This document shows positions 24,248 through 60,923 of a DNA stretch of 64,000 nt, piece after piece. This stretch comes from Frankiaceae bacterium. GTDB lineage: Bacteria > Actinomycetota > Actinomycetes > JADGOV01. Numbering within the stretch: the first letter of the stretch is position 1; each line of letters starts with the position of its first letter. Below the pieces are notes generated by a model. The model saw only the letters and a program-made list of their open reading frames with translations. It did no database searches and had not been told where the DNA came from. The position numbers and the translations under genes are program-made. The stretch covers positions 1,521 through 65,520 of the forward strand of contig JADGOV010000004.1 in the NCBI GenBank assembly GCA_017882785.1. Direction: 5' to 3'.

Positions 24248-24273
24248 GGCCTGAGCCGGCGTGCCTGCCTTGG

Positions 24274-31858: not shown

Positions 31859-31923
31859 GCCGATCATGCTCGAACGCGCGTTGCACAGCGCCGCGGAGGC
31901 TCACATCGAGCATGATCGGCGCG
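31859..31923. repeat. Palindromic interspersed element, copy 1 (16-bp inverted-repeat arms GCCGATCATGCTCGAA … TCGAGCATGATCGGCG).
   Basis: gccgatcatgctcgaacgcgcgttgcacagcgccgcggaggctcacatcgagcatgatcggcgc, in the ftsQ-ftsZ intergenic region. Confidence 0.6.
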
Positions 31924-32000
31924 TTCCAGGGAGGCCGGATTCGCCCCGGGCGACTATCCGGCGACTGACGGCCATGTGCAGCAGGGGCCATCAGCCAGGA

Positions 32001-32906
32001 TCAACCCGAGACGGTCACGACGTTTGGGGCCGAGATGTCATAGACACGCCCCTTTCGCGACAACAACGCGGCAAGCACATGCGCTTTGTCGACCGATCGG
32101 TCGGCGGACCCCCACACCACCCTGCGACCGTCACGAAGATAGAGGGTGACGGCGTTGCCTGTCGCCGCGTTCAGACGTTGGAGATGTGCGCGCAGCTCGG
32201 GGTTGAGTGCCTGCAACACGCTGAGTACGGCCCGAGTGGCCGGATCCGTACGGCTGACCGTGGCCAGCCGGACAATCGGCAACTGGGCGGGGGCTGAGTT
32301 CACTGTGCCGAAAGCCACGCCGTCCCGGTCCACCAAGGAGAAGCCGCCGGGTCGCGGCACGGCCAGGAGCGGCACGCGCTCGCTGACTCGAATCCGAACG
32401 CTGTGCGGAAAGTGCCGGCGGACGTCGACCGCGGCCACCGCGGGCAACGCGGCCACCCGGCGTGCGATCGCACCCGTGTCCAGCCGCGCCAGGGGGACCC
32501 CCGAGGGCACGCGGGCCGCCTGCCGGACCTCCTGGCTGGACACTCGAGAGGTGCCGGTCACACTCACGCCGCGGGCGAGGAAGAGGTGGGAGAACAGGAG
32601 CAGGTAGCCGACACCGACCAAGGTGGCGACCACGAGCGGCAGGGCCAGGCGGAGCGGCACTCGGACGGCCCGCAGACGGACGTGCCGGAGCCAGTCGGCG
32701 GGCACCCGAACGCTGGGCACCCGAACGCTGGGCAGACGAACGCTGGGCAGACGAAAAGCGGGCAGCCCAGAGGGCCACCGCAGCCTGTGACCCCACCGAG
32801 CGGAGGGCGGCCGGCCGGCGGAGTCCGCAGCCTCGCCGGTCGAGGCCGCCTGGTCAGGGATCGGCGCCGCCTGCCCGGCCGGGTCCGGCCGACGTCTCCT
32901 CAGCAC
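32001..32906 (-). CDS. ftsQ: Cell division protein FtsQ/DivIB.
   Basis: A single TM segment is followed by POTRA and FtsQ beta domains (…VSVTGTSRVSSQEVRQAA…). The N-terminal tail contains a (L/V)PSVR pentapeptide ×4 encoded by a 15-bp tandem repeat. The start is uncertain. Confidence 0.75.
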   Translation of the reverse strand: MLRRRRPDPAGQAAPIPDQAASTGEAADSAGRPPSARWGHRLRWPSGLPAFRLPSVRLPSVRVPSVRVPADWLRHVRLRAVRVPLRLALPLVVATLVGVGYLLLFSHLFLARGVSVTGTSRVSSQEVRQAARVPSGVPLARLDTGAIARRVAALPAVAAVDVRRHFPHSVRIRVSERVPLLAVPRPGGFSLVDRDGVAFGTVNSAPAQLPIVRLATVSRTDPATRAVLSVLQALNPELRAHLQRLNAATGNAVTLYLRDGRRVVWGSADRSVDKAHVLAALLSRKGRVYDISAPNVVTVSG

Positions 32907-33066
32907 GCCGTGCTGCCCGCGGGCGGACGACGGGCGGGACGACGAGCGTGGACACGCGGGGCGCCGGGACGCCGTCTGTGACAGCAGCGCATACCTCGCA
33001 CGGTGCCAGACACCCTCCGCAGCCGGGTTCCGCCACGCCGAGCGGGCTGAACTACCAGGCCTGTTA

Positions 33067-34470
33067 TCAATCCTGCAAGCCTGTCACCGGGGCCGCCTCC
33101 AAGGCGGCGAGCACCTCTCCGCCCAACATCGTGACGTCGCCGGCGCCGATGGTGAGCACGAGATCGCCAGGCCGGGCCAGCGTGGCCACCCGTGCGGCCA
33201 CTGCCAGCCACGAGGGCTCGAAGGCGACCCGCTCCGGCGGCAGGGTCACCTCCGCGGCGACGGTGGCGCCGCTGACGCCGGGGATCGGGTCCTCCCCCGC
33301 CGAGTACACCTCCATCACCACGACCTCGTCCGCGGCAGAGAGGACCCTGCCGAAGTCGGTGGCGAAGCCGGCGGTCCGGCTGTATCGGTGGGGCTGGAAG
33401 ACGGCGATGATCCGACCGTCGCCGACGACCTGGCGCGCGGCCTGAAGCGCGGCCGCGATCTCCGTCGGATGGTGGGCATAGTCGTCTATCACCCTGACCC
33501 CGGCCGAGGTGCCCTTGAGCTCGAAGCGGCGACGAGCACCGGTGAAGCCGGCCAGACCTTCCGCCATCCCGTCGAAGGGCAAACCCAGGCCCAGCCCGGC
33601 CGCCAGGGCCGCCGCGGAGTTCAGCACGTTGTGCTGCCCCGGCACGTTCAGGGTGACCTCGCCCAACTCGGCACCGCGCCAGATCGCCCGGTAGGCGGCG
33701 GTGCCGCGGATCAGCGAGACCTCCTGCAGGCGGAGGTCGCTACCGGAGCTGAGGCCGTAGCGCCGCACGTCACGGCCACCGGCGGCGGCGTCCGCGGCCA
33801 GCCGGGCCGATCCGGGGTCGTCGGCACAGGCCACGAGGAACCCGTCCGGGGCCAGCCGGTCGACGAAGGAGCGGAACGCGGCCTCGACGGCCGGCAGGTC
33901 CGGATAGTGATCGAGGTGGTCGACCTCGACGTTGGTGACCACACCGGCGTACGGCGACAGCAACAAGAACGACCCGTCACTCTCGTCGGCCTCGGCGATG
34001 AAATGCGGCCCGCTGCCGGCGTGCGCGTTGGACCCCGGCTCGGCGAGGTCGCCACCGATGGCGAAGGACGGGTCGAGGCCGCAGTGCTGCAGGAGGACGG
34101 TGAGCATCGAGGTGGTCGTCGTCTTGCCGTGGGTGCCTGCCACCGCGACGCCTCGTGAACCGGCCATGACCGCGGCCAACGCCGCAGCTCTCGGCAGGAT
34201 CCGCAAGCCCCGTCGCCGGCTCTCTACCACCTCGGGATTGGTGTCCCGGATCGCTGTGGAGACCACCACTGTGTCCGCGCCATCGACATGGCCCGCGTCG
34301 TGGCCCACCCAGACCTGGGCACCCAACGCGGCCAGCGCCGCGAGACTGCGGGAGTCCTTGGCATCGCTGCCCGAGACCCGCACGCCGCGGGCCAGCAGGA
34401 TCCTGGCGATGCCGGACATACCCGCCCCGCCTATGCCGACGAAGTGCACCCGCCCCAACTGCACGGTCAC
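33067..34470 (-). CDS. murC: UDP-N-acetylmuramate--L-alanine ligase.
   Basis: VHFVGIGGAGMSGIA…GTHGKTTTTSM… with Mur ligase domains, located between murG and ftsQ. Confidence 0.9.
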   Translation of the reverse strand: MTVQLGRVHFVGIGGAGMSGIARILLARGVRVSGSDAKDSRSLAALAALGAQVWVGHDAGHVDGADTVVVSTAIRDTNPEVVESRRRGLRILPRAAALAAVMAGSRGVAVAGTHGKTTTTSMLTVLLQHCGLDPSFAIGGDLAEPGSNAHAGSGPHFIAEADESDGSFLLLSPYAGVVTNVEVDHLDHYPDLPAVEAAFRSFVDRLAPDGFLVACADDPGSARLAADAAAGGRDVRRYGLSSGSDLRLQEVSLIRGTAAYRAIWRGAELGEVTLNVPGQHNVLNSAAALAAGLGLGLPFDGMAEGLAGFTGARRRFELKGTSAGVRVIDDYAHHPTEIAAALQAARQVVGDGRIIAVFQPHRYSRTAGFATDFGRVLSAADEVVVMEVYSAGEDPIPGVSGATVAAEVTLPPERVAFEPSWLAVAARVATLARPGDLVLTIGAGDVTMLGGEVLAALEAAPVTGLQD

Positions 34471-34483
34471 GCTACGGGCTCAC

Positions 34484-35647
34484 TCATGCCGCAGCCCGCT
34501 CGCCGGCAGCGGCGAGGACCATCCGGGCAAGGACCACGTCGGCGTTGCGACGACCCAGCCCAGCGGCGGCCTTACTCATGGTCGCCAGTGTGACGGTGTC
34601 GGTAACCAGGGGCAGCACCACTCGGGTGATCCAGGTCCCGTCAACGCGCTCGTCGTCGACCAGGAGCGCACCCCCTGCGGTGACGATCGGCATCGCGTTG
34701 AGCCGCTGCTCACCGTTACCGATTGGCAGCGGTACGTAGACGGCGGGCAGGCCGACGGCGGCCAACTCGGCGCAGGTCATCGCGCCGGCCCGGCAGAGCG
34801 CGAGGTCGGTAGCGGCGTAGGCCAGCTCCATCCGGTCGGTATAGGGCAGCAGGACATAGCGGCCACCCTCCGCCGGCCGGCCCACCGCGCCCAGTGCTCC
34901 GGCCACGTCCGCCACCTGGGTGGGGCCAGCCAGATGCAGCACCTGCACCCCGGCCCGGGCGAGCGCCGGTGCGGCGGCCACCATCGCCGTGTTGATGCGC
35001 TGCGCGCCCTGCGAGCCGCCCGTGACCAGGAGAGTCGGTCGCGCCGGGTCCAGGCCGAAGGCGGCGGCCGCCGCGGCACGCAGGGCCGGCCGGTCCAGGG
35101 TGGCGATCGCGTTGCGCAGCGGAATGCCGATGTGTCGGGCGTGCGGGAGCGGGCAGTCGGGCGTGGCCGCGGCGACGTGGCGGGTCAGCCGAGCACCCAG
35201 CCGGTTGGCCAGGCCCGGTCGCGCGTTGGCCTCGTGCAGCACGATCGGGACGCGACGCCAGCGGGCGGCCAGGTAGCCGGGGACAGCGACGTACCCGCCG
35301 AATCCGAGCAGTACGTCCGCGCCGGTGTCGTCGAGGACCCGCGCGGCGGCCGCCACGGCACTGGCGAGGCGGCCGGGCACGGTCAGCAACTCCGTGGTCA
35401 GCCGACGGGGCAGCGGGACCGCGGGCAGCAACTCGAGGGGATAGCCCCGAGCCGGGACCAGCCGGGTCTCCAGCCCGCGCTCGGTGCCCAGCGCGGTGAT
35501 GCCGATGCCGGGAGCCAGCCGGCGCAGGGCGTCGGCGGCCGCCAGGGCCGGCTCGATGTGACCAGCCGTGCCACCACCGGCCAGGACCACGTGCACGATC
35601 AGCGCCTCCGGCCGCTCGACCGCCGGAGCCGACGCTCGCCGAGCCAC
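34484..35647 (-). CDS. murG: UDP-GlcNAc:lipid I GlcNAc transferase MurG.
   Basis: …[16 protein letters not shown]… is the GT28 N-terminus and …LVTGGSQGA… is the C-domain. The start is probably internal, near 35590. Confidence 0.85.
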
Positions 35648-36900
35648 CTCGTCTCGACTGTCCGCCGCCGCCCGGGACGCTGACTGGGCCGCCGACCGAC
35701 CCTGCGCAGACGCAGGCGGGTCAACGCCGACGGACCGCGAGCCGCCAGCGCCGCGGCGGCACCGGGCTCACAGCGAGCGAACGCGGCCAGGGCGCCGACG
35801 GCGAACATGCTGGGCACGAGCGCCGAGCCACCGTAGGACACCAACGGCAACGGGATGCCGGTGATCGGCAGCAGGCCCACCACCGCGCCCATGTTGACCA
35901 GCGCCTGAGCGAGCAGCCAGCAGGTGATCGCACCTGCGGCGAGGCGGCAGAACGGGTCACGGTTGCGCCGGGCGGTGCGGATACCGGCGAAACCGAGCAC
36001 GCCGAACAGCGTCAGCACCGCCAGCGTCCCGATGAGGCCGAGCTCCTCGCCGATGATGGCGAAGATGTAGTCGGTGTACTGGTTGGGCAGGTAGGACCAC
36101 TTCTGCCGACTGGCGCCGAGGCCGAGGCCCCACCAGCCGCCGGACGCGAGCGTCATCAACCCTTGTGAAGCCTGGTATCCGGCCCCGAGGGAGTCCGACC
36201 AGGGATCCCAGAAGTGCGCGAAGCGGCGCAGCCGGTAGGGCTCCGCCGCGATGAGTGTCGCGACGACCGCGCCGACGGCCGCGCTGAGGACGCCGAACAG
36301 TCGAGCCGGTGCACCGACGATCCACAGCAGACCGAGGGTGATCGCGAGCAGCACGAGAGTCGTTCCCATGTCGGGTTGGATCATCACCAGCCCGGCGAGC
36401 ACGGCGACCATCGGCAGCAACGGCACGAGCAGGTGCCGCCACCGTCCCAGCAGCCGATCTTTGCGGCAGAGCAGGTCGGCTCCCCACAGCGCGAGGGCCA
36501 GCTTGGCCGGCTCGCTGGGCTGGATCTGGATCAGCCCGAGATCGATCCACCGGGTGGCCCCGTAGGCCGACGATCCAATCACCGGCACCAGCGCGAGCAG
36601 CGCGAGCGACACCACCAGCAGCGGGTAGCCGAGCCAGCGGTAGATCCGCACCGGCAGGCGGATCGCGACCATCATCGCCGGCACGCCGAGCAGGACGCCG
36701 ATGCCCTGCCGGTAGAAGTAGTAGAACGACGAGCCGGTACGGGCATAGGCCGTGACGCTCGACGCGGACAACACCATGACCAGCCCGATGACGGTCAGCA
36801 GTGCCGCGCTGCCGAGAATGAGGTAGTAGGAGGTGAGTGGACGCGCCAGCACCGGCTGGCGGGCCGCCCGGACCGATGTGGCGGTCGTCGCGGCGGTCAC
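35599..36900 (-). CDS. ftsW: Peptidoglycan glycosyltransferase FtsW (SEDS family).
   Basis: 10-TM SEDS protein with …[16 protein letters not shown]… and …[11 protein letters not shown]…. Confidence 0.85.
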
Positions 36901-38540
36901 CGGCCCGCTCCCGGCAGCCGCCGGACCGCCGCCGCGAACTCGTCGCCGCGGGCCGCGTAGTCGCGGAACTGGTCCATCGACGCCGCGGCCGGAGCCAACA
37001 GCACGGTGTCCCCCGGGTCGGCCAGAACGGCCGCGGCGGCCACCGCGGCGCTCATCACCCCCGCCGCGCCCGTCCCGGTGACGGCGGCCCGGACCGCTCG
37101 ATCACCACCCGCCTGGCTGGACCGGGCGGGTGCGCCGGGCGGGGCGGGGGGGACAGTCGCGGACACCTCCCCAGTCTCGGTGACCGCGACCTCAACGACC
37201 GGCACGTTCGGGGCGTGTCGCGCCAACGCCTGCCGGATCGCGGCGCGGTCCGCGCCGAGAAGCACCGCGGCCCGCATCCGCACAGCCGTCGCGCTTACCA
37301 GCGGGGCGACGTCAGCGCCCTTGAGCAGCCCGCCGGCGATCCAGACCACCCGGTCATAGGCTGCGAGACTGGCCGCCGCGGCGTGCGGATTGGTCGCCTT
37401 CGAGTCGTCCACGAAGCTGACACCGGACACCACGGCAACCGGCGCGTTCCGGTGGCCGTCCGGGGTGAAGCCGCGCAACCCGACCCGAACGGCCGCCGGC
37501 GGCACGCCGTAGGCGCGGGCCAGAGCGGCGGCAGCCAGCGCGTTGGCCACGTTGTGTCCGCCCGCGGGTCCGACGTCGTCCACACCGGCGACGACCGTGT
37601 CGGTGTCGGTGTCGGTGCCTGCGTCGGGTTGGAAGGCCCGGTCCACCAGTTGCCCGTCGGCCACGCCGAACTGCCCGCGCCCCGGTACGCCCAGCGTGAA
37701 GGACACCCTGCGCTGCGCGTAGGCAGCCCGCAGGAGCACCGCCGTCAGCTCGTCATCGGCGTTACCCACCGCGACCGGGATCCGCGGCTGCGGGCAGTAC
37801 GCTAGGCGCGCCCGTACCGACCAGCCCCCCTCGCTCCGGTGCACCTCGCCGCCGTTGACGGGATCCCGCCAGATCCGGTGCTTGTCGCTGGCGTAGGCCT
37901 CGAACGACCCGTGCCAGTCCAGGTGGTCCTGCGCGACGTTGAGGATGGCGGCGGCCGCCGGGCGTATCGAGTGGGTCCAGTGCAGCTGGAAGCTGGACAG
38001 CTCGACGGCCAGGACGTCGTACGCTGGCTCGGCGAGCACCGCCTCGACCAGCGGCCGGCCGACGTTGCCGGCGGCGGCCGCGCGCCGGCCGGCGGCGGTG
38101 AGCATCGCGGCCAGCATCCGGACCGTCGTCGTCTTGCCGTTGGTCCCGGTCAGCGCCAGCCAGGGCGCGGCGTTCGGCGGGCGCAGCCGCCAGGCCAGCT
38201 CCACCTCGCCGTATACCGGGATCTGGCTATCGGCGGCGGCGAGGAGCAGTCGGTGGCCCGGTGGCCAGCCCGGCGAAGTGATCACCACCTCGGTGCCGGC
38301 GGGGGGCCGCCCGAGCGCGCCATCGCCGAGTGAGACGGCCGCCCCGAGAGCGCGCAACGTGGCGGCCCGTTCCTCCTGTACCGCCCCGGCCTGGGCATCG
38401 ACCACGGTCACGGCCGCACCCAGCCCCAGCAAGGCGGTGGCGGCGGCGGCGCCGGAGAGGCCAAGCCCGGTCACGAGGACCTTCCGGTCCGCCCACCCAG
38501 CCCGCCCCTCGGCTGCGCCGGCGGCACCGGTGGCGGTCAC
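36897..38540 (-). CDS. murD: UDP-N-acetylmuramoyl-L-alanine--D-glutamate ligase MurD.
   Basis: …[14 protein letters not shown]… and …[11 protein letters not shown]… are Mur ligase motifs. Its position between mraY and ftsW is the expected one. Confidence 0.85.
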
Positions 38541-39601
38541 AGCAGGCTGCCACGGGCGACGAAGTCGGCGTAGAACACGCCGAGACCGAAGGCCACCGCG
38601 AGTCCCGCAATGATCCAGAACCGAATGACGATCGTGACCTCGGCCCAGCCGGAAAGCTCGAAGTGATGTTGCAGCGGCGCCATCTTGAAGACCCGCCGAC
38701 CGCTGACCTTGTAGGCCGCCACCTGGATGATCACTGAAAGCGTGATGACCACGAAGAGGCCGCCGAACAGGATGAGCAGCAACTGGGTACGGGTGCAGAT
38801 GGCCAGCCCGGCCAACGCGCCGCCGAGGCTCAGCGAGCCGGTGTCACCCATGAAGATCCGCGCCGGCGGAGCGTTCCACCACAGGAAACCGAAGCAGGCG
38901 CCCATCGCCGCCGCAGCGACGATGGCCAGGTCGAGTGGATCCCGCACCTGGTAGCAGTTGGGGTTCACCCCTGTGCAGGCGTTGCCGAACTCCCAGAAGG
39001 CGACGACGACGTAGGCCCCGAAGACCATCACGCAGGCCCCGGTGGCCAGCCCGTCCAACCCGTCGGTGAGGTTCACCCCGTTGGACGCGCCGGAAACGAT
39101 GATGTAGGCGATGAGCACGAACCCGACCGGGCTCAGGGAGATCGCCGAGTCCCGGACGAAGGAGAGATGGGTGGACCCCGGCGTCAGTCCGCTGCCGTTC
39201 GGGAACCGCAGCGCCAGGACGGCGAAGACCAGCCCGATGCCGAGCTGGCCGACCAGCTTCGCCCGGGCGGACAGGCCCAGGCTGCGCTGCTTGCGCACCT
39301 TGATGTAGTCATCAGCGAAACCGACCAGGCCCATACCGGTCATGAGGAACAGCACGAGCAGGCCGCTGGCGGTGAACTGGTAGGGCGCGAACAGGTGGGC
39401 CGCGGCGTACCCCAGCAGCGTCGCGGCCAGGATCACCGTCCCGCCCATGGTCGGTGTGCCCCGCTTGATGTGGTGGGTGGTAGGGCCGTCATCGCGGATC
39501 AGCTGACCGTAGCCGCGCTCGCGGAGCAGCCGGATTGTCGCCGGCGTGCCCAGTAACGACACGACCAGCGAGACCAGCGCGGCGACGAGGACGTGGGTCA
39601 C
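38537..39601 (-). CDS. mraY: Phospho-N-acetylmuramoyl-pentapeptide transferase MraY.
   Basis: …[13 protein letters not shown]… and …[12 protein letters not shown]… are MraY motifs; the protein is multi-TM. Confidence 0.9.
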
Positions 39602-40998
39602 GACGCCCCTTCGAGCAGGGCGGCGGCGATGCGTTCCAGGCCGGCGGCCCGCGATGCCTTGACCAGGACGACGTCCCCGGGGGCCACGGCGGCCCGCAGC
39701 AACTCCGCCGCGGCGGGCACGTCGGCCACGGCGAGCGCGACTCCGCCCGCCGACTCCACGGCCTCCGCGATCGGGCGCGCGGGTTCGCCGACAGCGAGCA
39801 CGCGGTCGATCCCCAGCGCGACGGCGATCCGGCCTACCTCGGCGTGCGCGGCGGGCGCAGCCGCTCCGAGTTCGGCCATCGGGCCGAGGACGGCCCAGGA
39901 TCGGCGGGATGTGCCGGACGGTGGGCAGGCCATCGCGATCAGCGCCTCGAGTGCGGCGCGCATGGACTCCGGGTTGGCGTTGTAGGCGTCATTGACCACA
40001 CGCACCCCCTCGGGGGTATCGCTGACCTCCATCCGCCAGCGGCTGACCGCCTTCGCCGCACCGAGCGCAGCCGCCACCTCCGGCAGTCCCAGACCCAGCT
40101 CGAGGGCCACCGCGGCGGCGGCCAGCGCGTTTCCCACGTGGTGGGCACCGTGCAGGCGCAGCTGGACGGGTGCCGACCCCGCCCCGATGACCAGCCGGAA
40201 GCCCGGGCGGCCTGCGGAGTCGAGCCGGACGTCGCGCCCGGCCACGTCCACCCCGGGGCCGGTACCCACGGTGCGCACGGCGGCGGCGGTCCGGGTGGCC
40301 ATCGCGGCCACCACCGGGTCGTCGGCGTTGAGCACGGCCAGCCCGCCGGGCCCCAGCGCCTCGACGAGCTCGCCCTTGGCTCGTGCGGTGTTCTGGCGGC
40401 TGCCGAAGACGCCCACGTGCGCGGTCCCGACGTTGAGGACGATGCCGATCCGCGGCGGGGCGACGGCGCACAGCGCCGCGATGTGTCCGACGCCGCGGGC
40501 GCTGTATTCCAGCACGAGATGCCGGGTCGTCGGCTGTGCCCGGAGTACCGTCAGCGGCAGTCCGAGCTCGTTGTTCCAGCTCCCGGCGGGCGCCACCGTC
40601 GGTCCGATCCCGGCCAGCAGAACAGCCAGCATGTCCTTGGTGCTGGTCTTACCCGAGGACCCGGTCACGCCGATGACCGCCGCCGAAGGGAGCTGATCCA
40701 GCACGGCCCTGGCCAGCCGTCCGAGGGCCGATACGACCTCGGGGACCACGACGGTCGGCACGCCCAGCGGCCGATCGGCGAGCACGCCGACAGCGCCGGC
40801 GGCGACGGCCGCCGCCGCGAACTCCGCCCCGTCGACGTGCTCCCCCCGCAGGGCGACGAACAGGGCGCCCGGCTCGACAGTGCGGGAGTCGATGGCTGGC
40901 GCGGCGGTGACCCGGGCGTACGCCGGGGCGTCGTGCAGCCGGCCGCCGGTGGCCGCGGCCACCTCGGCCAACGTCAGTGGGATCACGCCTTCGACCAA
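39598..40998 (-). CDS. murF: UDP-MurNAc-tripeptide--D-Ala-D-Ala ligase MurF.
   Basis: …[16 protein letters not shown]… and …[11 protein letters not shown]… are MurF motifs. Confidence 0.9.

Positions 40999-44567: not shown

Positions 44568-44571
<4 letters not shown>
42628..44571 (-). CDS. ftsI: Penicillin-binding protein FtsI (class B PBP transpeptidase).
   Basis: A TM anchor and PBP dimerisation domain precede the transpeptidase domain (…SVNKV… SxxK, …SSN…, …KTGTA…). The start is uncertain. Confidence 0.85.
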
Positions 44572-45265
<694 letters not shown>

Positions 45266-45269
<4 letters not shown>

Positions 45270-46240: not shown

Positions 46241-46243
46241 CAG

Positions 46244-46622: not shown

Positions 46623-47063
46623 TCAGAACAATCCAGGGAGCACCTCCTCTGAGAGGTCGGCGAAGGACTGTTCAGAGGTGGCCAGGAACGCCTGCCACGC
46701 GGGCGCGTCCCAGATCTCCACATGGTTGCTGGCCCCGATCACCGCAATGTCCCGGTCCAGGCCGGCGTACTCGCGTAAGGCTGTCGGAAGCGTGACCCGT
46801 CCCTGCTTGTCGGGGACCTCGAAGCTGGCCCCGGCGAAGAACACCCGGACGTAGTCCCGAACGGCCTTGGCTGACAACGAGGCCTGCTGGATGCGCTCGC
46901 CGAAGACGGCGAACTGCTCCTCGGCAAAGACGTAGAGGCAGCGATCCTGCCCCTTGGTCATCACCAAGCCTCCTGCCAGTTGCTCCCGAAACTTGGCCGG
47001 CAGGAAGAGCCGGCCCTTCTCGTCGAGCTTGGGGAAGTGGGTGCCGACGAACACTGCCGCCAT
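46623..47063 (-). CDS. mraZ: Transcriptional regulator MraZ.
   Basis: [29 protein letters not shown]… carries a duplicated MraZ/SpoVT-AbrB domain. It is the first gene of the dcw cluster. Confidence 0.85.
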
Positions 47064-47074
47064 CCCCCTCTAAG

Positions 47075-47100
47075 CTCCACTTCGCTCCACCATACTCCAC
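47075..47100 (-). promoter_or_regulatory. Three direct GTGGAG repeats at 10-bp spacing (candidate MraZ operator) overlapping a putative mraZ promoter.
   Basis: Minus strand: TTGACC-N16-TATGGT, with the -10 inside cGTGGAGtatgGTGGAGcgaaGTGGAGcttagaggggATG. The third repeat ends 11 nt before the mraZ ATG. MraZ proteins are known to bind GTGG(G/T)G-type direct-repeat series in their own promoters. Confidence 0.45.
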
Positions 47101-47220
47101 GGGGTCCCTCGGTCAACGTCTTTCGTTGACGGTCACCCAGGTCACGTATGTCCCGCGGGAGCTTGGCTGGGCGACATTCCGACCGCCCTCCCCGATCCCG
47201 CACCGTGGGTGCGGCCCTTC

Positions 47221-47283
47221 GCCGATCATGCTCGAACGAACGTCGCGAATCGGTTGGCAACGCGCATTCGAGCATGATCGGCG
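47221..47283. repeat. Palindromic interspersed element, copy 2.
   Basis: gccgatcatgctcgaacgaacgtcgcgaatcggttggcaacgcgcattcgagcatgatcggcg, about 160 nt upstream of mraZ and 130 nt upstream of the divergent membrane-protein gene. Confidence 0.6.
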
Positions 47284-47413
47284 TATGGCGGCGCGGCCCA
47301 GCGCGCAGCAACGGCTCAGCGGCTCAGCCGCGGCCGTCCTCGGACTTTCCCCACGGGCGGTACGTGCCGATGATGACGAGTATGCGAAGGGGGCGGAATC
47401 CGTGAGCGGGTTC

Positions 47414-48154: not shown

Positions 48155-48293
48155 TCAGCGCCTGCACTCGGAGCTCCCGGGCCGCCAGCTGCCTCGAGCG
48201 TCCCCCGTCGTCACACTGGCGATAACCGGCGAACAGAGTGACACTGAACGGGGCCCAGGACAGGGCGCCCCCCCGAGCGAACGAGGGAGGTCC

Positions 48294-49287: not shown

Positions 49288-49288
49288 G

Positions 49289-53088: not shown

Positions 53089-53309
53089 CGGCTTCGACAG
53101 GTCCGCCCGCGGTCATTGGCCTATCGTCAGGCGCCTCTGAGGCGACGAACCCGCAGCTGAGGCCCCCTGAAGGGCGTGATGTTCGCGTCGGGTTCCCGAC
53201 GTGATGGAGGGTGGGCCGGTTGAGCGGCCGACACCCGCTGCGCTGATCGCTGGCGCCCATCCGGCGAGCCACGCTAGGTCCGAGAACCGGCAGGCTGCAC
53301 GCTGTTCTC

Positions 53310-53816
53310 ATGCGCACACTCGTCATCGTCCGGCATGCCAAGGCTGAATCCCCGGACGGCGTTCGCGACATCGACCGTCACCTCTCGGCGCGGGGCCGGC
53401 GGGACTCCCGGCAGGCGGGCACATGGCTGCGCCACTCGACCAAGCGTCCGGACCTCGTGCTGTCATCGCCGTCCCGACGGACCATGGAGACTGCCGATGA
53501 GATAGTCAGCGGCTACGACGCTCCTGCCCCCACGGTGCGCTCCGAGCAGCGGCTCTACGAGGCGTCCCTCTCCGATGTCCTCGAGGTGCTCCGCGCCCTG
53601 CCCAAGAAGGCCGGCACGGTCGTCCTCATCGGCCACAACCCGTCGGTGAGTGCTCTGGCCACCGAGCTGGCGGGACAGCCGGTTGATCTGCGGACCTGCG
53701 GTGTGGCGGTCGTATCGGTCCCACGCGCCTGGGCCGAGATCGCCGGGGGAGGGGGCTTGCTGGAGACGGTACAGACGCCACGGGGGGTGAAACCCCACGA
53801 TTCAGGCGCGTCGTGA
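53310..53816 (+). CDS. SixA-type histidine phosphatase (phosphohistidine phosphatase family).
   Basis: MRTLVIVRHAKAE… is the RHA motif of the histidine phosphatase superfamily; 168 aa. Confidence 0.7.
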   Translation: MRTLVIVRHAKAESPDGVRDIDRHLSARGRRDSRQAGTWLRHSTKRPDLVLSSPSRRTMETADEIVSGYDAPAPTVRSEQRLYEASLSDVLEVLRALPKKAGTVVLIGHNPSVSALATELAGQPVDLRTCGVAVVSVPRAWAEIAGGGGLLETVQTPRGVKPHDSGAS

Positions 53817-53817
53817 G

Positions 53818-54285
53818 TCAGTGGCCACGCTCATCCCAGCGGCGGCGCCAGCGCTCCTCCAGACGACCCTTCCAGGATCCGCGCCGCCGTTCCCGACGGG
53901 GCCGCAGGCGTGTCACGGCGGCGACGCTGGGGGCGCCCTGGGGTCGATTCTGCCGGCCACCCTCCCGATGACCGGTCAGCCGCTGCCAGCTCGTCACACC
54001 GAACAGCAACGCGGCCAGCATCACCACGAAACCGAAGACACCGACCAGTGGTTCCTTGCTGATCACTCCGACCATCAGCAGGATGATGCCGAGGATGAAC
54101 AGGAGCGCGCAGCGCAGGATGCGTCGCGAGTAGTGCTTGCGAAGATTGGTGGAGCGATAGGACGAGGCAAACTTCGGGTCCTCGGCGTACAGCGCGCGCT
54201 CGATCTGGTCGAGCAGGCGCTGCTCGTGGTCAGAGAGCGGCACGGTGCTCCTCCCAGGTGGCCGGCGCGGGTGCCAGGAGGACAT
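53818..54285 (-). CDS. DUF3040-family small membrane protein.
   Basis: PLSDHEQRLLDQIERALYAEDPKFAS is followed by two TM helices. The true start is probably the GTG near 54245. Confidence 0.55.
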   Translation of the reverse strand: MSSWHPRRPPGRSTVPLSDHEQRLLDQIERALYAEDPKFASSYRSTNLRKHYSRRILRCALLFILGIILLMVGVISKEPLVGVFGFVVMLAALLFGVTSWQRLTGHREGGRQNRPQGAPSVAAVTRLRPRRERRRGSWKGRLEERWRRRWDERGH

Positions 54286-54438
54286 CGAACCTCTGCCACG
54301 TCGCGAAAGCGGATCCGCAGGACTTGAGGATACGGTCGGTCGGGCCGCCGCGAAAGCAGTCCAGGCAGGCTCGCACCGCGCTTTCCCCCGCTGATCCAGA
54401 CTCCAGCACCGCTCGGATGGTACGCCTGTCCGAAGTGG

Positions 54439-55638
54439 TCACGGTCCGGGGTCCGGCGGACGGCGGCCGAAGAGCGTCCCGGGGCGCACGGCACCGGCGC
54501 CGAAACGTCGAGCAGCCCGGTCGGCTGCCTGCTCGGCCTCCCGCCAGCCGAAGGCCCGCTGGCCGAGCACGAGTTGCCGCGGTTGGGCAGCTGCCGGGCC
54601 CAGCCCCTCCACCCGGACGCCGACCAGCCGGAGCCGAGCCCGCTGCAAGCCCAGACGATCGACCAACGCGGTGGCCACCGCGTAGATGTCTCGGCCCACG
54701 TCGGTCGCCTCGGGCAGCGTTCGCGACCGCGTTATCGTGCTGAAGTCGGAAAATCGAATCTTGACGCTGACGGTGCGGCCGACCTGCCCGCTGTCCCGGA
54801 GCCGGCCTGCGGTGCGTTCGGACAGCCGGAGCAGCTCCCGGCGGATCCGTACCGGATCGTCCACGTCCCGCTCGAAGGTCTCCTCCGAGCCGATGCTCCG
54901 ATCGGGCTCAGTGGGGATGACCGATCGTGGATCGCGGCCCCAGGCGAGGGCGGCCAGGTGGGCACCGGCCGCCGATCCGACGGCCCGTTGCAAGGTGGAT
55001 ACCGGGGTGTCCGCCAGATCACCCACCGTCCGCAGGCCGAGTCGGAGAAGGCTCTCCTCGGTGCGCTCCCCCACACCCCACAGGGCGGCCACTGGCAGTG
55101 GATGCAGGAAGGCGACCACCCGTTCGGGCGGCACCGCCAGCAGTCCGTCGGGCTTGGCCCGCGTCGAGGCCAGCTTGGCGACGAACTTGGTGCTGGCCAC
55201 CCCGACCGAGCAGGGGATGTCCTGCTCGTCGGCGATCCGGGCACGGATCCACTCGCCGATCTCGACCGGCCCGCCCAGTCGGCGACGGGCACCGGACACC
55301 TCGAGGAAGGCCTCGTCGAGCGCGATCGGTTCGACCAGCGGGGTGACCGATCGGAACACCTCCATGATGCCGGCGGACACCGCGGAGTAGGCGGCGAAGT
55401 CGGGCGGGATCACGACCGCGTCCGGGCAGAGTCGGTGGGCACGGCTCATGGGTAGCGCGCTGCGCACACCGAAGGCCCGCGCCTCATACGTTGCCGACAG
55501 CACGACCCCACGGGTGCTGGAGCCACCCACGATCACCGGCTGGCCGCGCAGCTCGGGGTGCCGCCGCAGTTCCACGCTGGCGTAGAAGGCGTCCATGTCG
55601 ACGTGCAGGATCGAGCACGCCGCCGCGTGCCCTGTCAT
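54439..55638 (-). CDS. dinB: DNA polymerase IV (Y-family, DinB).
   Basis: ILHVDMDAFYASVE…GVASTKFVAKLAS… are Y-family pol motifs. It lies downstream of dnaE2 on the same strand. Confidence 0.85.
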   Translation of the reverse strand: MTGHAAACSILHVDMDAFYASVELRRHPELRGQPVIVGGSSTRGVVLSATYEARAFGVRSALPMSRAHRLCPDAVVIPPDFAAYSAVSAGIMEVFRSVTPLVEPIALDEAFLEVSGARRRLGGPVEIGEWIRARIADEQDIPCSVGVASTKFVAKLASTRAKPDGLLAVPPERVVAFLHPLPVAALWGVGERTEESLLRLGLRTVGDLADTPVSTLQRAVGSAAGAHLAALAWGRDPRSVIPTEPDRSIGSEETFERDVDDPVRIRRELLRLSERTAGRLRDSGQVGRTVSVKIRFSDFSTITRSRTLPEATDVGRDIYAVATALVDRLGLQRARLRLVGVRVEGLGPAAAQPRQLVLGQRAFGWREAEQAADRAARRFGAGAVRPGTLFGRRPPDPGP

Positions 55639-55671
55639 GGGAACGCTGTCATGGGAACGCTGTCATGTGGA
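55634..55671 (-). repeat. Tandem 14-bp duplication spanning the dinB start codon, creating two stacked mini-uORFs.
   Basis: Minus strand: ATGACAGCGTTCCC ATGACAGCGTTCCC ATGACAGGGCACG. The first two ATGs open 5-codon ORFs (MTAFP*), and each TGA overlaps the next ATG (ATGA). Confidence 0.6.
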
Positions 55672-55769
55672 CGAGCACCGCCACGATGCAGGATTCGGCA
55701 GGCAGAATTCGAGCAGCCTGAATTCCAGCAGCGTAGTGCGATGAACCCGGCGACGGCCCAGCGGTGGAG

Positions 55770-58700
55770 TCATCGGCCGGCGCTGCCGGAACTGGAATGC
55801 CAGAGCTTGCGCGAAGTGCCGCCGCTCGCCGGCTGCCCACCCGCCGACCTGGCTCCCACCTGCGCACCGCCCACCGGGACGGGGGCCGGCACGGGTCGGG
55901 TGGACCGGCTCTCGGCTGCCCCGCGCACAGCAGCCTCGAGCACCGCTGTCGTCCGCCCGGGCGGACGGGCCAGGATTCTCGCCACCGCGGGCAGGCCACC
56001 GTCGACCCAGCTGGCACACAGGGTAGGCAGCTCCCAACAGCCGGTTGCCCGGATCGAGATGCCGCGCGGTCCGGTGCGGCGGGTAATTCCGCGCAGCACC
56101 AGCAACCAGGAGTTGAACAGCGTGCTCGCGTACCCCACCTGGGCGTCTTCGAAGAACGTCGCGTCCAACGCCCCGGTCGCGTCGTCGAGGGTGACGAAGA
56201 CCACCCGGCGGCCCGAACGCACCGGTGGGGTCTGGGTCGCCACCTTCACCCCCGCGACGAGTACCTCCGACCGGGTCCGGCGGCAGAGCAGATCGCGTGC
56301 CCGGGTGACACCGAGGGCGTCCATGAACGGGACGTACCCGGCGAGCACGTGCTGGCTGGCGTCGAGGCCCAGCACGTCGAGTTCGGCCCGCACGCGCTCG
56401 GCGCCGTTCATTTCCGGCAGCCCGCTCGGCGCCACCACCCCCGGTGCGTCCCCGAGGTCGAGGGTGAGCTGGACGGCGAGGTCGGCCGGGGCCGGTGCGG
56501 CCGCCTGAGATTGCCGGGCCGCCAACTCCCGGACGGTGAGCGCGCCGGCCGCAGCCGTGATGCCGTCCGTGGCGCCCGGACCGGACGGCAGAACCGCGGC
56601 CGGACGGTGACGGCCGCGGACGGACCGCGCAGCCCTGGCGGTCGACCGACTCCAGCTGTCCAGTTCGACGACCTGGAGCAGGAGATCTCGGCGGGTCACC
56701 CGCCCCCGGCGACGTACGATCAGCGCCGAGCCAATGCCGTACAGATCGTCGAAGGCGCCAGCCACCACCAGCCGCTCGGCGATCGGCCGGGACACCCCGG
56801 CCCGGTGCCAGAAGTCGGAAAGTGACGCGTAGGGCCGGCCTGCGACGGTCCGGGCCATCTCGGCCTCCGTGATGCCCTTGACGTCGGCCAGGCTGAGTCG
56901 GATGCCGTAGTCCCGACCGTCGGGTAGTCCCGGCGGCGGTGCGGACCGCGGCTGGGCGTCGAGGATCTCCGGCGGTGGCTCGTCGTAGCGGCCTACCCGT
57001 TCGATGCGGTACTGCCCGTCGGAGCGGTTGACATCCAGGCCGAGCACGGCGATACCGAGCTGGCGGGCGTCGTCGAGAATGAGCCGCTTGGGGTACATGC
57101 CGGGGTCATGGGTCAGCACACCGGCCAAGAATGCCGCCGGATGGTGTGCCTTGAGCCAGGCCGACTGGTAGGTAGGCACGGCGAACGCCGCCGCGTGCGC
57201 CTTGCAGAAACCGAACGATCCGAAGCCCTTGAGAACCTCCCAGACCTGTTCGACGGTGGCGAGCGGATAGCCGTGGTCGAGCGCGGCGGGCAGGAACCAG
57301 GTCCTGACCTCTGGCTGGCCGAGTGGATCACCGAGCGCGCGCCGGACCTCGTCGGCCTCGGCGAGGGAGCACCCGGTGAACGTGGCGACGATGCACAGCA
57401 CCTGCTCGTGGAAGACGACGACGCCGCGGGTCTCCGCGAGCACTGGCTCCAGATCCGGATGGAGGTAGCTGGGCTGCCGCCAGCCCTGCCGGGCTTCGAG
57501 GAACGGGGTAACCATGTCGGTTTTGACCGGCCCCGGCCGGAACAGCGAGATGTCGATGATCAAATCGGCGAACGTCTCCGGCGCGAACTTCCCGATCAAT
57601 TCACGCTGGCCGGGCGATTCGATCTGGAAACAACCGAGTGTCTTGGTGGACTGCACCAGCGCGTAGGTAGCCGGATCATCACGCGGCACCGCGTCGATGT
57701 CGATCTCGACCCCGTCGACCCGACGCGCCTCGCCCACGGCGTGCGCGATGGCGGACTGCATGCGGATACCGAGCAGGTCGAGCTTGAGCAATCCCAGCGC
57801 CTCGACGTCGTCCTTGTCGAACTGGCTCATCGGAAACCCCAGCCAGCTCGACTCGACCGGGGTGCGATCGAGCAACGTGGCGTCGGAGAGCACCACTCCG
57901 CATGGGTGCAGCGCGATGTGCCGGGGCAGGCCGTCGAGGCGCTCCACCAGTCGGAACAGCAGATCCAGCCGACCACCGCGGCCGTCCGGGTCGGCCAAAC
58001 CGCTGGCCCGCAGCTCCGGCAGATCACGCAGCGCCGCCCGTACCTGGCTGGCCCGCAGATGCGGGAACGCCTTGGCGATCGTGTCGATCTCCCCCGGTGG
58101 CAGGCCGAGGGCAGCCCCGACGTCGCGGATCGCGTGCCGGACGCGGTAGGTGTCCATCATCGACACGCACGCGCAACGCTCGGCGCCGAAGCGGGCGAGC
58201 ACCGCCTCGTAGACCTCGGTCCGCCGGGCGGACTCGACGTCGATGTCGATATCAGGCAGTTGGTGACGCAGCGGTGAGAGAAAGCGCTCCATCAGCAGCC
58301 CGTGCTGCAGCGGGTCGACGTCGGAGACCCCGAGCAGGTAGGTGACCAGGCTGCCGGCACCGGACCCGCGGGCGGCGCAACGCACCCTCATACCCTTGAT
58401 GATCTCCACCACGTCGCCGACGGTGAGGAAGTACGACGCGTAGCCCAGCTTGGCGATCACTGTCAGTTCCTCGTCCAGCCGGCGCTCGGCCTCAGCGGTG
58501 GCCGGCCGGCCGCGCCGCCCGTACCCGGCCGTACAGCGGGCCCGGAGCACCGCGTCCGCCGCTCCGGCACTGCCCAGACCGGCACTGCCCAGACCGGCAC
58601 TGCCCAGACCGGTGCCCAACTCGGGGAAGTGCACCTCGCCGAGACCCAGGCCGCCGGCGCCGGGAACCAGCGCGCACTGCTCGGCGACGAGTCGGGTACG

Positions 58701-59588
58701 GACGAGCAGGTCCGCACCGGTGCGCCCGCTTCCACCGACCAACCGGGTCAGCTCGTCAGCGACCTCGGCCATCTCCTTCCCCGACTTCAGGTAGCCCTCG
58801 GCGTTGTCGCGGTCGACGTGCCGGGAATTGAGGACGACGAGCCGCCTGGCGGCGTCGAGGACATCGGCCACCGGTGCGTCCGCCCGGTCGACGTACCGGA
58901 CGGCATTGGTGAGCACCGCCGGCACCCGCTGCTCGGTGGCGAAGGCGAGCAGCCTGGCCGCACGATGTCCGGCACCGGGGCCCCGGTGGTGGACGATCTC
59001 GACGAGCAGGTCGTCGGTGCCGACCGCGTCCCGCCAGCGGTCCAGGTGCCGGCGTGCGAGATCCGGTCGGCGGGTGGCCAGTGCGCGGCCGACGTCGGAG
59101 TCGGGTCCGAGCAGCACGAACAACCGTCGGGCATGCGCGGTGACCAAGTCGACGCTGCTCACCGGCCGGCCACGCTCGCCGGCAAGATGAGTGGCACTGA
59201 TGAGTCGGCACAGCGCGCCCCAACCCTCGATGTCCCGAGCCAGCACCGTGATCCGCGGGTGCCCAGGGTCGACGTAGGCCCCGCCGCGGGCCGGCACCCG
59301 GCGCACCCCCCGGCCACCAGCCGCCCGGTCCGACCTCCGGTGACCGGGGTCGGTGACGTCGACCGGAACCTCGTCGACGGCGAGGTCGACTCCGAGGATC
59401 GGCCGCACCCCAGCCGATTGGCAGGCCTGGATGAACCTCACCGCACCATAGGCACCGTCCCGATCGGTCAGCGCGAGCGCCTCCTGGCCGTGCTCGGCGG
59501 CCCGCTCGACGAGCGCATGCGGGTGCGTCGCGCCGTAGCGCATCGAGTAGCCGGACGCCACGTGCAGGTGGGTGAATGGATCACTCAC
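55770..59588 (-). CDS. dnaE2: Error-prone DNA polymerase DnaE2 (ImuC).
   Basis: 1272 aa. VSDPFTHLHVASGYSMRYG is the PHP N-terminus and the pol III alpha core follows. The GTG start overlaps the stop of the upstream HEPN gene (GTGA). Confidence 0.9.
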   Translation of the reverse strand: MSDPFTHLHVASGYSMRYGATHPHALVERAAEHGQEALALTDRDGAYGAVRFIQACQSAGVRPILGVDLAVDEVPVDVTDPGHRRSDRAAGGRGVRRVPARGGAYVDPGHPRITVLARDIEGWGALCRLISATHLAGERGRPVSSVDLVTAHARRLFVLLGPDSDVGRALATRRPDLARRHLDRWRDAVGTDDLLVEIVHHRGPGAGHRAARLLAFATEQRVPAVLTNAVRYVDRADAPVADVLDAARRLVVLNSRHVDRDNAEGYLKSGKEMAEVADELTRLVGGSGRTGADLLVRTRLVAEQCALVPGAGGLGLGEVHFPELGTGLGSAGLGSAGLGSAGAADAVLRARCTAGYGRRGRPATAEAERRLDEELTVIAKLGYASYFLTVGDVVEIIKGMRVRCAARGSGAGSLVTYLLGVSDVDPLQHGLLMERFLSPLRHQLPDIDIDVESARRTEVYEAVLARFGAERCACVSMMDTYRVRHAIRDVGAALGLPPGEIDTIAKAFPHLRASQVRAALRDLPELRASGLADPDGRGGRLDLLFRLVERLDGLPRHIALHPCGVVLSDATLLDRTPVESSWLGFPMSQFDKDDVEALGLLKLDLLGIRMQSAIAHAVGEARRVDGVEIDIDAVPRDDPATYALVQSTKTLGCFQIESPGQRELIGKFAPETFADLIIDISLFRPGPVKTDMVTPFLEARQGWRQPSYLHPDLEPVLAETRGVVVFHEQVLCIVATFTGCSLAEADEVRRALGDPLGQPEVRTWFLPAALDHGYPLATVEQVWEVLKGFGSFGFCKAHAAAFAVPTYQSAWLKAHHPAAFLAGVLTHDPGMYPKRLILDDARQLGIAVLGLDVNRSDGQYRIERVGRYDEPPPEILDAQPRSAPPPGLPDGRDYGIRLSLADVKGITEAEMARTVAGRPYASLSDFWHRAGVSRPIAERLVVAGAFDDLYGIGSALIVRRRGRVTRRDLLLQVVELDSWSRSTARAARSVRGRHRPAAVLPSGPGATDGITAAAGALTVRELAARQSQAAAPAPADLAVQLTLDLGDAPGVVAPSGLPEMNGAERVRAELDVLGLDASQHVLAGYVPFMDALGVTRARDLLCRRTRSEVLVAGVKVATQTPPVRSGRRVVFVTLDDATGALDATFFEDAQVGYASTLFNSWLLVLRGITRRTGPRGISIRATGCWELPTLCASWVDGGLPAVARILARPPGRTTAVLEAAVRGAAESRSTRPVPAPVPVGGAQVGARSAGGQPASGGTSRKLWHSSSGSAGR

Positions 59589-60109
59589 CCGGACGCCACT
59601 GCGCGTACCGGAAGCAACGGCTGGTGAACATGGCCGAGGAATTCCTCGACCAGGCCGAGAAAGGTCTGTGCATCCCGGAGCAGGTCATCTGCGTCCCGCC
59701 GGGTGACCGCCCCCACCAACCCGGCCTCCGCGGCGGCCCGCTTGCCGGCCCCCGCCGCGAAGAAGGCCGCCCACTCGGTCAACGGTGGCAGCACCACCGG
59801 CAACAACGCCCAGACACTTCTCGGTCCGCGTCGCCGCCCACCAGCGTCGTCCGGCCGCGCCCGGGCGGCGAGGACTGCGGCGGCAGCCCGCAGCGCTGCC
59901 AGGTGAGCGGCGGCGTACCGCTCGGCGGCGGTCTCCGTCGCAGCCGCTTCGGTGAGCCCGCGACGGGCAAGACCGAGAAGATCGTCAGCGGCGGCTGCGC
60001 TGCGCCGCGACGGACCCGGCACGGTCGGACCAGCGGGGCTTCGCCCGGTAAGAACTGACCGCCGATCGACACCGGATGCCCGGGACGAGGCGGGAGGGGA
60101 GACGGACAT
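59585..60109 (-). CDS. Hypothetical protein, probably a SAV_6107-like HEPN-domain protein.
   Basis: Ala/Arg-rich helical protein (…ERYAAAHLAALRAAAAVLA…EWAAFFAAGAGKRAAAEAGL…). It is translationally coupled to dnaE2. The family assignment is from recall and not certain. Confidence 0.4.
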   Translation of the reverse strand: MSVSPPASSRASGVDRRSVLTGRSPAGPTVPGPSRRSAAAADDLLGLARRGLTEAAATETAAERYAAAHLAALRAAAAVLAARARPDDAGGRRRGPRSVWALLPVVLPPLTEWAAFFAAGAGKRAAAEAGLVGAVTRRDADDLLRDAQTFLGLVEEFLGHVHQPLLPVRAVASG

Positions 60110-60118
60110 CGCAGGCGC

Positions 60119-60679
60119 TCAATCCAGGACGCGGGTGATGGTCCAGGTCCCCGCGCTCCAGTCGAAGCAGAGGTCATAGACCCCCGTGTCGGCCGCCCGA
60201 CCGGCGCCTGCCTCCACCCGCCAGCACTCCCGCTCACCGTCGTCGACCGCGATGCTGCCGACGGATGCTCCGATGTCGGGCGCCGGCTCCCCCCAGGCCC
60301 GCTGCCCCCATTTCGGCGCAGCCGGAATCGGTGTCAGTCGCAGATCATCTGACCCTGACTCTGGCCCTGGCCCGGCCGATGACCCGGCCGATCCGAGCCC
60401 CGAAGCCTCCTCAACGCCGAAGAGCGGCCGGGCCGCCGCACTGCGCCACCAACCGCCGGACTCCACCCAGCAGGTGAGGACCGCTCGGACCACATAGAGC
60501 CGTCCACGCCACAGGAACTGCTCGGGGGCCTCGTCCCTCCGGCGAACCTCGATGGTCTCTCCACACCGCCGCGACATTTCACCCGCTCCTTCCGCCCAGC
60601 CAGCAAGATCATCAGATCGGCACCGGGGGAAGGCGGCGCGACGGCGCCGGCGGAGAGATGCTTCCCCACACCTCTCCAC
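60119..60679 (-). CDS. Hypothetical protein with an internally duplicated domain (DUF6504-like); first gene of the dnaE2 operon.
   Basis: Two similar segments, ETIEVRRRDEAPEQFLWRGRLYVVRAVLTCWVESGGWW and ERECWRVEAGAGRAADTGVYDLCFDWSAGTWTITRVLD. A LexA box lies 64 nt upstream. Confidence 0.4.
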   Translation of the reverse strand: MERCGEASLRRRRRAAFPRCRSDDLAGWAEGAGEMSRRCGETIEVRRRDEAPEQFLWRGRLYVVRAVLTCWVESGGWWRSAAARPLFGVEEASGLGSAGSSAGPGPESGSDDLRLTPIPAAPKWGQRAWGEPAPDIGASVGSIAVDDGERECWRVEAGAGRAADTGVYDLCFDWSAGTWTITRVLD

Positions 60680-60742
60680 CGGCCCGCCGGGATGCGATGC
60701 TGACCGGTGGGTCGAGAACCGGCCTGCACCTACATTCCATCA

Positions 60743-60758
60743 TCGAACGTATGTTCGA
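60743..60758. promoter_or_regulatory. LexA (SOS) box TCGAACGTATGTTCGA.
   Basis: A perfect match to the actinobacterial SOS-box consensus TCGAAC-N4-GTTCGA, sitting upstream of the DUF6504-HEPN-dnaE2(-dinB) gene string. Confidence 0.7.
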
Positions 60759-60828
60759 AGATGGACTAAGTTAACTCCGGTCCGGCCGTTCGGTCAAGGG
60801 TGAACGGCGCCGGTCCCCCACCGGTTAC

Positions 60829-60923
60829 GCCGATCATGCTCGAAGGTGCGTTGACCTCGCCGATCATGCTCGAAGGTACGTTCGGGATCGACTCGAGGCG
60901 TACGAACGAGCATGATCGGCGCG
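60829..60923. repeat. Palindromic interspersed element, copy 3, with a tandemly duplicated left arm.
   Basis: gccgatcatgctcgaaggtgcgttgacctc + gccgatcatgctcgaaggtacgttcggg…cgaacgagcatgatcggcgcg, located 70 nt from the LexA box. Confidence 0.6.

Follow-up and report, generated by a model that had tools for sequence, protein, structure and literature searches.

A lineage-restricted family of 64-bp palindromic intergenic repeats in a Frankiaceae bacterium and its relatives

In the 64,000-nucleotide stretch of Frankiaceae bacterium DNA analysed here (the window; contig JADGOV010000004.1 of assembly GCA_017882785.1), three copies of a 64-bp element with perfectly inverted arms lie in intergenic spacers beside genes of cell division and of SOS mutagenesis, which raises the question of what these elements are and why they stand where they do. 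A preliminary description, made from the sequence alone, had offered two answers: interspersed repeats of the type of miniature inverted-repeat transposable elements (MITEs) or repetitive extragenic palindromic (REP) sequences with a preference for promoter regions, or a family of regulatory sites linking division genes to SOS genes. The former answer, shorn of the promoter preference, is favoured here: with a probability of roughly 0.58, the elements form a REPIN- or BIME-like family (REPIN, REP doublet forming a hairpin; BIME, bacterial interspersed mosaic element) of non-autonomous interspersed repeats of ~64 bp, the arms of which are recognized by a putative sequence-specific protein encoded elsewhere.

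Within the window, the 15-mer CGCCGATCATGCTCG occurs exactly seven times, compared to 0.05 expected occurrences, and none of 100 dinucleotide shuffles reaches seven. These occurrences are the arms of the three 64-bp palindromes, which are the longest and strongest short-range inverted repeats of the window, plus one extra direct arm. Copy 1 (31858–31921) has 16-nt, 100% complementary arms at 31858–31873 and 31906–31921 around a 32-nt spacer; it lies between ftsQ and ftsZ, 78 nt past the ftsQ stop codon and ~320 nt ahead of the probable GTG start of ftsZ, and is found too in strains L083, L095 and L177 (L numbers denote the sites and contigs of the searches below). Copy 2 (47220–47283), with perfect 17-nt arms at 47220–47236 and 47267–47283, is unchanged across nine strain contigs. 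On one side of its divergent spacer stands mraZ, which starts at 47063 on the minus strand, and on the other a membrane-protein gene, which starts at ~47414 on the plus strand; relative to the sole promoter-like hexamer pair for mraZ, the copy is ~105 nt upstream. Copy 3 (60858–60921), which is the same in L035, has perfect 15-nt arms at 60858–60872 and 60907–60921 with a mismatch at the 16th position; its divergent spacer separates the DUF6504/HEPN/DnaE2 operon (minus strand) from a YbaK-like tRNA-editing gene (plus strand). All three copies are 64 bp long and have no strand. An extra arm unit (CGCCGATCATGCTCGAAGGTGCGTTGACCT; 60828–60857, plus strand) stands in direct orientation 30 nt upstream of the left arm of copy 3 and is scored as half an element by nhmmer (23 bits), and a partial direct duplicate of the arm terminus (CGCCGATCTC; 31848–31857, plus strand) abuts copy 1, where Tandem Repeats Finder (TRF) reports a repeat of period 10 and 1.9 copies that overlaps the start of the arm. 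Whole copies are 68–73% identical, nearly all of which comes from the arms, the spacers being near random between the window copies; the G+C content of the window is 71%. The preliminary description had located the three palindromes, the genes that they adjoin and the duplicated left arm of the third copy properly, with coordinates off by at most one base.

The family extends well beyond the window. When the exact paired-arm pattern was scanned against 185,579 species genomes, a single one matched, the Frankiaceae metagenome-assembled genome (MAG) GCA_040002735.1 (JBDUDX01), which has five sites. A similar pattern retrieved 85 loci from JGI metagenomes, ~27 of which are family members, as judged by their high G+C content, their CGCC/GGCG ends and a GATC-to-GATC distance of exactly 56 nt. 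After merging of identical loci, 19 distinct sites remain: 13 of the window lineage, five of the MAG and one of another metagenome. Expressed as a profile, the element reads CGCCGATCATG-N(40-50)-CATGATCGGCG; a third genome, GCA_038232055.1 (JBBSIN01), carries a 66-bp palindrome that has only the terminal CGCCGATCATG in common with the family. Because the contigs bearing the window's own genes are 99.0–99.8% identical to the window, those window-lineage contigs that were reached by way of MraZ and FtsQ come from a single population, to which the remaining metagenome-derived sites of this lineage presumably belong as well. The family is lineage-restricted, with at least 19 sites in unrelated genomic contexts and in at least three related genomes, which supports the MITE- or REP-like alternative of the preliminary description. 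The other JGI loci are unrelated to the family: some are coding sequence of an ABC-2 permease, the rest an AT-rich MITE-like palindrome and further palindromes. The AT-rich family (41–50% G+C; L026, L028, L037, L047, L050 and others, all from Ga03075xx metagenomes) has long inverted ends, AGTGATGGRCACGATCATGCTCGAGCA, and its 12-mer GATCATGCTCGA is common to the actinobacterial arms by chance.

Alignment of the 38 arms of the 19 sites from outside inwards defines an arm unit of 26–30 nt with the consensus yCGCCGATCATGCTCGwwsGnnsGTy. The CGCC ends, although outside the search pattern, are 96% conserved and carry 1.5–2.0 bits; the inner positions G+15, G+19 and T+20 carry 1.3–1.6 bits. The central ~10 nt carry ~0 bits, their sequence being unrelated between copies and their length fixed: GATC to GATC spans 56 nt at 17 of the 19 sites and 55 nt at the other two. 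Two arm variants occur, the window lineage favouring ...GAAsGnnCGTTGC and the MAG ...GATCGGACGTCAT. A C-rich flank motif (CCCCC..CCCGCAC), present at four to five window-lineage sites at variable distance and absent elsewhere, was not counted as part of the element.

The two halves of the element do not co-evolve as a hairpin. Inner-arm positions match in 6.7 of 13 cases within elements and equally in 6.7 of 13 between elements (p=0.54, permutation test); real elements fold with −39.2 kcal/mol and left/right chimeras with −39.7 kcal/mol (p=0.66); paired cells on the symmetric structure amount to 81.7% versus 82.2% in shuffles, with 370 of 500 shuffles scoring at least as high; and covariation is 0.087 versus 0.094 in shuffles. 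A pairing rule between arm subtypes (GAA.. versus GTWC..) was rejected, the counts fitting random assortment. The interior is partially palindromic because both arms follow one sequence consensus, and this pattern marks sequence recognition and not a selected stem. The hairpins predicted for the full elements are strong on either strand, with −40 to −58 kcal/mol and z −2.7 to −8. Taken alone, the window-type unit has no fold (−1.5 kcal/mol, z +0.8) and the MAG-type unit a weak one (−6.5 kcal/mol, z −1.6).

The placement of the sites does not bear out the promoter preference suggested earlier. Flanking genes were classified by open reading frame (ORF), GC3-phase and Pfam analysis, by which the spacer type could be set for 15 of the 19 sites, four being unclassifiable. 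About eight spacers are tandem (ftsQ|ftsZ, era|recO, ppk2|..ndk, rny|sensor, GGDEF|ATP-dependent ligase, decarboxylase|extracytoplasmic-function sigma factor, thiamine-pyrophosphate enzyme|JmjC, trp operon|lgt), three to four are divergent, and three are convergent (GT2|pgi, ROK|tag, oxidoreductase|epimerase), a setting in which promoters are not expected. No functional theme unites the neighbouring genes, and a promoter-proximal bias was rejected after this typing; the sites are distributed roughly as they would be if placed at random in spacers. Three of the five MAG copies (L001 4010–4032, L002 1675–1696 and L004 205–227) begin 2–3 nt after a hairpin followed by a T-run (…GGTTTTCG|CGCC…), which in its sequence looks like the intrinsic terminator of the upstream gene; insertion may therefore prefer sites just past terminators.

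Comparison of orthologous spacers indicates turnover between related genomes. In the MAG, the era–recO spacer measures ~355 nt and contains the element with tandem repeats on both sides, whereas the same spacer lacks the element and measures only 67, 48 and 42 nt in three relatives, whose RecO proteins are 87%, 81% and 77% identical. Likewise, relative L169 (MraZ 79% identical) has no element upstream of mraZ, relative L097 (FtsQ 63% identical) has no family element but a different palindrome between ftsQ and ftsZ, and two more relatives carry another palindrome, with GCCAAGGAGATC arms, upstream of mraZ. The absence of the element from orthologous spacers, together with the differing palindromes found there, means that these repeats come and go and diversify between related genomes. 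Other palindromes of 58–82 bp were seen in related genomes (L097 11082–11139, L171 1665–1746, L172 2–80, L176 6530–6609 and L175 2180–2245), where they occupy the ftsQ–ftsZ, upstream-of-mraZ and upstream-of-era spacers; some of their arms contain GATC, the L175 palindrome has the terminal CGCCGATCATG in common with the family, and one L171 arm has CGTACGGACG in common with the MAG variant. These observations suggest either a wider set of such palindrome families in the clade or spacers that act as hot spots.

The ends of the element are the site of further, local rearrangement. Six of the 13 window-lineage sites have an extra arm in direct orientation at a distance of 30 or 41 nt. The 41-nt duplicate of L086 retains the 15-nt core unchanged, its flank and inner arm having diverged, and a 41-nt tandem duplication of arm and flank distinguishes L092 from L054, i.e. 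it is a strain polymorphism. TRF also revealed flanking tandem repeats with units of 8–26 nt in up to six copies, which overlap the terminal 3–8 nt of the arm at a minimum of six sites (copy 1, L002 on both sides, L173, L005, L036 and L175). These repeats begin inside the terminal CGCC/CGCCGATC, which is thus a recurrent breakpoint. In L005 (5899–6200), the 3' end of an ORF resembling epimerases and 3-beta-hydroxysteroid dehydrogenases extends across the flanking tandem repeats, here of 21 nt (…QSAPPPG x3…), and ends within the element; the C-terminus of this epimerase-like protein may have been reshaped by the repeat region.

Among known repeat systems, REPINs come closest in layout: in their published description, two invariant ends of 16 bp, inverted relative to each other, enclose a spacer that is less conserved and whose length counts, and the repeats are distributed randomly over extragenic space and form tandem clusters that include the flanks (PMC3116915). 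This layout matches that of the family, which is therefore read as a REPIN/BIME-like repeat. Two invariant regions of ~16 bp are inverted around a less conserved spacer of kept length (19 of 19 sites have the invariant arms), the sites are extragenic without preference for a type of spacer, singlet arms and tandem clusters including flanks occur, and the family is restricted to a lineage, with diverged variants in related genomes. As in the BIMEs of E. coli, which are mosaics of Y and Z REP units with defined linkers that are bound by integration host factor (IHF), gyrase and Pol I, units stand in alternating or direct orientation at set distances and form local arrays between genes, and by analogy a duplex-binding protein would be a plausible partner. 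The linkers of BIMEs, however, are conserved motif types, in contrast to the arbitrary centre seen here, and the two have no sequence relation. The REPIN/BIME-like family could work in the following manner. The element is an inverted doublet of a 26–30-nt unit around a centre of ~10 nt, arbitrary in sequence and fixed in length. As non-coding, non-autonomous DNA it would be copied into many intergenic spacers of any type, like the REPIN/BIME repeats of proteobacteria. A protein acting in trans, with its gene at another place in the genome, would read the arms by their sequence, which would not be kept for base-pairing in a hairpin; this protein is presumably a transposase-like enzyme or some other site-specific DNA-binding enzyme. 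The ends are prone to local tandem duplication, giving rise to the extra arms at 30 or 41 nt and to the flank repeats that start inside CGCC/CGCCGATC. Where a copy is transcribed, its G+C-rich stem of 15–17 bp will fold into a strong hairpin, which may as a side effect influence read-through or the stability of the mRNA, between ftsQ and ftsZ for instance.

Several observations weigh against a REPIN/BIME-like repeat. REP units are imperfect palindromes with a GT(A/G)G head, and the REP system comprises a single-copy gene for a REP-associated tyrosine transposase (RAYT; Y1/HUH type) flanked by repeats. The element lacks the GT(A/G)G head (neither GTAG nor GTGG occurs at either arm end), the window-lineage unit is not a palindrome, stem changes are not compensatory, and no HUH/Y1-like (RAYT-like) ORF or cognate transposase was found in the ~200 kb of family loci examined; assignment to canonical REPs was rejected on account of the missing head and the missing unit hairpin in the window lineage. 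It further differs from REPINs in that the centres are wholly unrelated between copies, in its size of only 64 bp, in a copy number that appears to be tens and not hundreds, and in its actinobacterial host. Look-ups through MraZ and FtsQ gave no presence/absence polymorphism among strain contigs 99.0–99.8% identical to the window, all of which carry the elements, so that current mobility is not shown. No two copies have a centre in common, and mismatch-tolerant arm-pair scans and family-profile nhmmer searches of the 64-kb window and its flanks returned only arms adjoining known elements and no decayed copies, which is not what would be expected of recent spread from a master copy or of neutral decay. 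Perfect arms next to unrelated centres without decayed copies, and the recurrent breakpoint of the flank repeats, do not fit a simple selfish repeat and therefore keep alive an explanation by maintained protein sites: the repeats may have spread once and then been kept, purifying selection preserving arm pairs at which a chromosomal protein binds two inverted 26-nt sites ~44 bp, or four helical turns, apart. A global regulator, an architectural protein or a topological one, such as gyrase or IHF at BIMEs, could fill this role. The un-ascertained conservation of the CGCC ends, the random centres at fixed spacing and the adherence of the arms to a sequence consensus instead of pairing rules speak in its favour, as do the extra arms at 30 or 41 nt, which correspond to roughly whole helical turns, and the other palindromes that relatives carry in the ftsQ–ftsZ spacer and in that upstream of mraZ. 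The sites are, however, not conserved at orthologous positions in relatives, three of the 15 classifiable ones lie between convergent genes, the neighbours have no common function, a separate host use of every dispersed copy is implausible, and no candidate protein was identified; this explanation is rather unlikely.

A host role of a more specific kind had been proposed in the preliminary description, namely that LexA or a LexA-like factor binds TCGAAC-N4-GTT strings of the arms, linking the division genes with the SOS response. The arm does resemble the actinobacterial LexA box, TCGAAC-N4-GTTCGA, in having TCGAA and, 4–5 nt on, GTT; TCGAACGCGCGTTGCA and TCGAAGGTACGTTCGG are two mismatches and one metagenomic arm (TCGAACGCAGGTTCGC in L012) is one mismatch away from it, and repair genes are among the neighbours (the dnaE2 operon, recO, tag, the ATP-dependent ligase). 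The mismatches of the internal window strings include core positions, however, and matches of equal quality occur by chance inside genes; box position 6, the C of GAAC, varies across arms, the second half-site is not conserved, most right halves reading GTTGC and not GTTCG, and the MAG variant has GATCGGACGTCAT in place of the LexA-like string. The sole consensus LexA box of the window is the perfect TCGAACGTATGTTCGA at 60743–60758, 70 nt outside the repeat of copy 3. With a palindrome containing both GAAC/GTTC cores lacking and most neighbours unrelated to SOS or division, membership of the family among SOS operators was rejected, and the proposed link is highly improbable. If the arms served instead at the RNA level, as a conserved hairpin acting as terminator or attenuator, RNase processing site, stabilizer of mRNA 3' ends or small RNA, the strong hairpins predicted on both strands and the location of several copies 30–140 nt past stop codons would be accounted for. 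Yet covariation and compensatory changes are lacking, the symmetry of the element leaves no strand preference, and for the three to four copies in divergent spacers a transcript arriving from upstream is not to be expected. Rfam 15 gave no match at gathering score in the whole window and none even at E≤1 around copy 3, the window copies have no terminator-like site, and the flanks are free of U-tracts (T-runs after the stem) on either strand. A function as structured RNA thus finds no support, and an RNA-level role is quite unlikely. That the element is small, dispersed between genes, bounded by perfect terminal inverted repeats and missing from orthologous sites would also suit a classical MITE, i.e. 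an internally deleted DDE insertion sequence (IS) whose terminal inverted repeats are the arms. Bacterial MITEs such as the Correia elements of Neisseria, which likewise are short, have terminal inverted repeats and lie dispersed in spacers near promoters and terminators, and which can change how nearby genes are expressed, carry target-site duplications and a common internal sequence. Neither is found in this family: side-by-side comparison of the flanks of all copies gave no direct repeat of 2–10 nt abutting the ends, the interiors have nothing in common, and no longer element with the same ends, such as a parent IS, was present in family loci, plasmids or viral contigs, nor were distant arm pairs in the family loci. 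The classical MITE was rejected on these grounds and is very improbable.

Some further identities found no place in the data. In viral contigs, the 16-nt arm matched 69 times by chance, each time singly and never as a pair, and a phage origin was rejected. All hits of blastn against PLSDB were chance matches (E≥0.2) and none was actinobacterial, which gave no support to a plasmid or IS origin. Integron attC sites have R''/R' core sites (RYYYAAC / GTTRRRY) and form arrays between promoterless cassettes next to intI; the element ends in CGCCGATC, not in such core sites, and its copies are single, between housekeeping genes and without a cassette array, so that this identity was also rejected. 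A consensus search of the window copies found no element-borne sigma-70 promoters.

The genes around the window copies deserve brief mention. The division and cell wall (dcw) cluster lies on the minus strand, with the ftsZ ORF at 30174–31724 (probable GTG start near 31538), ftsQ at 32001–32906 and mraZ at 46623–47063. The SOS mutagenesis cassette (55770–60758) consists of DUF6504 (60119–60679), a SAV_6107-like HEPN gene (59585–60109) and a DnaE2-type polymerase (55770–59588), adjoined by a DinB-like IMS gene and a DUF3040 gene, and is not a textbook imuA'-imuB-dnaE2 arrangement. A second small intergenic repeat (24268–24319 versus 27618–27669; 83% identical over 52 nt; …CCAGTGTCTTCGGCCCGCGYCGGRCCGGCCTGAAGC) has no Rfam match, and its copy at 27615–27676 has a local inverted repeat of its own. 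An intergenic stretch of 35 nt at 53125–53159 is missing from L006, L007 and L009, which are otherwise 99.0–99.8% identical to the window. Five in-frame tandem copies of a 54-nt unit (4445–4819; spacings 54/81/105 nt) lie inside the minus-strand ORF 4407–4934, which probably encodes a repetitive coiled-coil protein.

REP, BIME and REPIN families are well studied in proteobacteria. A literature search returned no paper with the exact arm sequence and none linking REPs, RAYTs and Actinobacteria, and no short palindromic repeat family was found described for this poorly known group of actinobacteria from soil. The family has a REPIN-like layout without the hallmarks of REPs, and its conservation pattern of perfect arms, fixed length, arbitrary centre and no pairing constraint points to recognition by a protein. 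The tempting idea that LexA controls ftsZ and mraZ is set aside as unsupported, and the spacers carrying the element are flagged as hot spots of repeat insertion and slippage, which bears on annotation, on assembly, where palindromes stand at contig ends, and on how the dcw promoter regions of these organisms are read. It is tempting, if speculative and on balance doubtful, to think of an actinobacterial counterpart of the REPIN–RAYT system with a different enzyme: a putative duplex binder of two inverted 26-nt sites in a fixed 44-bp register, keeping the arms homogeneous while the centre drifts and nicking near CGCCGATC^ATG, the suspected recurrent breakpoint of the flanking tandem repeats; or, alternatively, of a chromosome-organizing factor with dedicated sites. 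Either would be a protein–DNA system not yet described in Actinobacteria.

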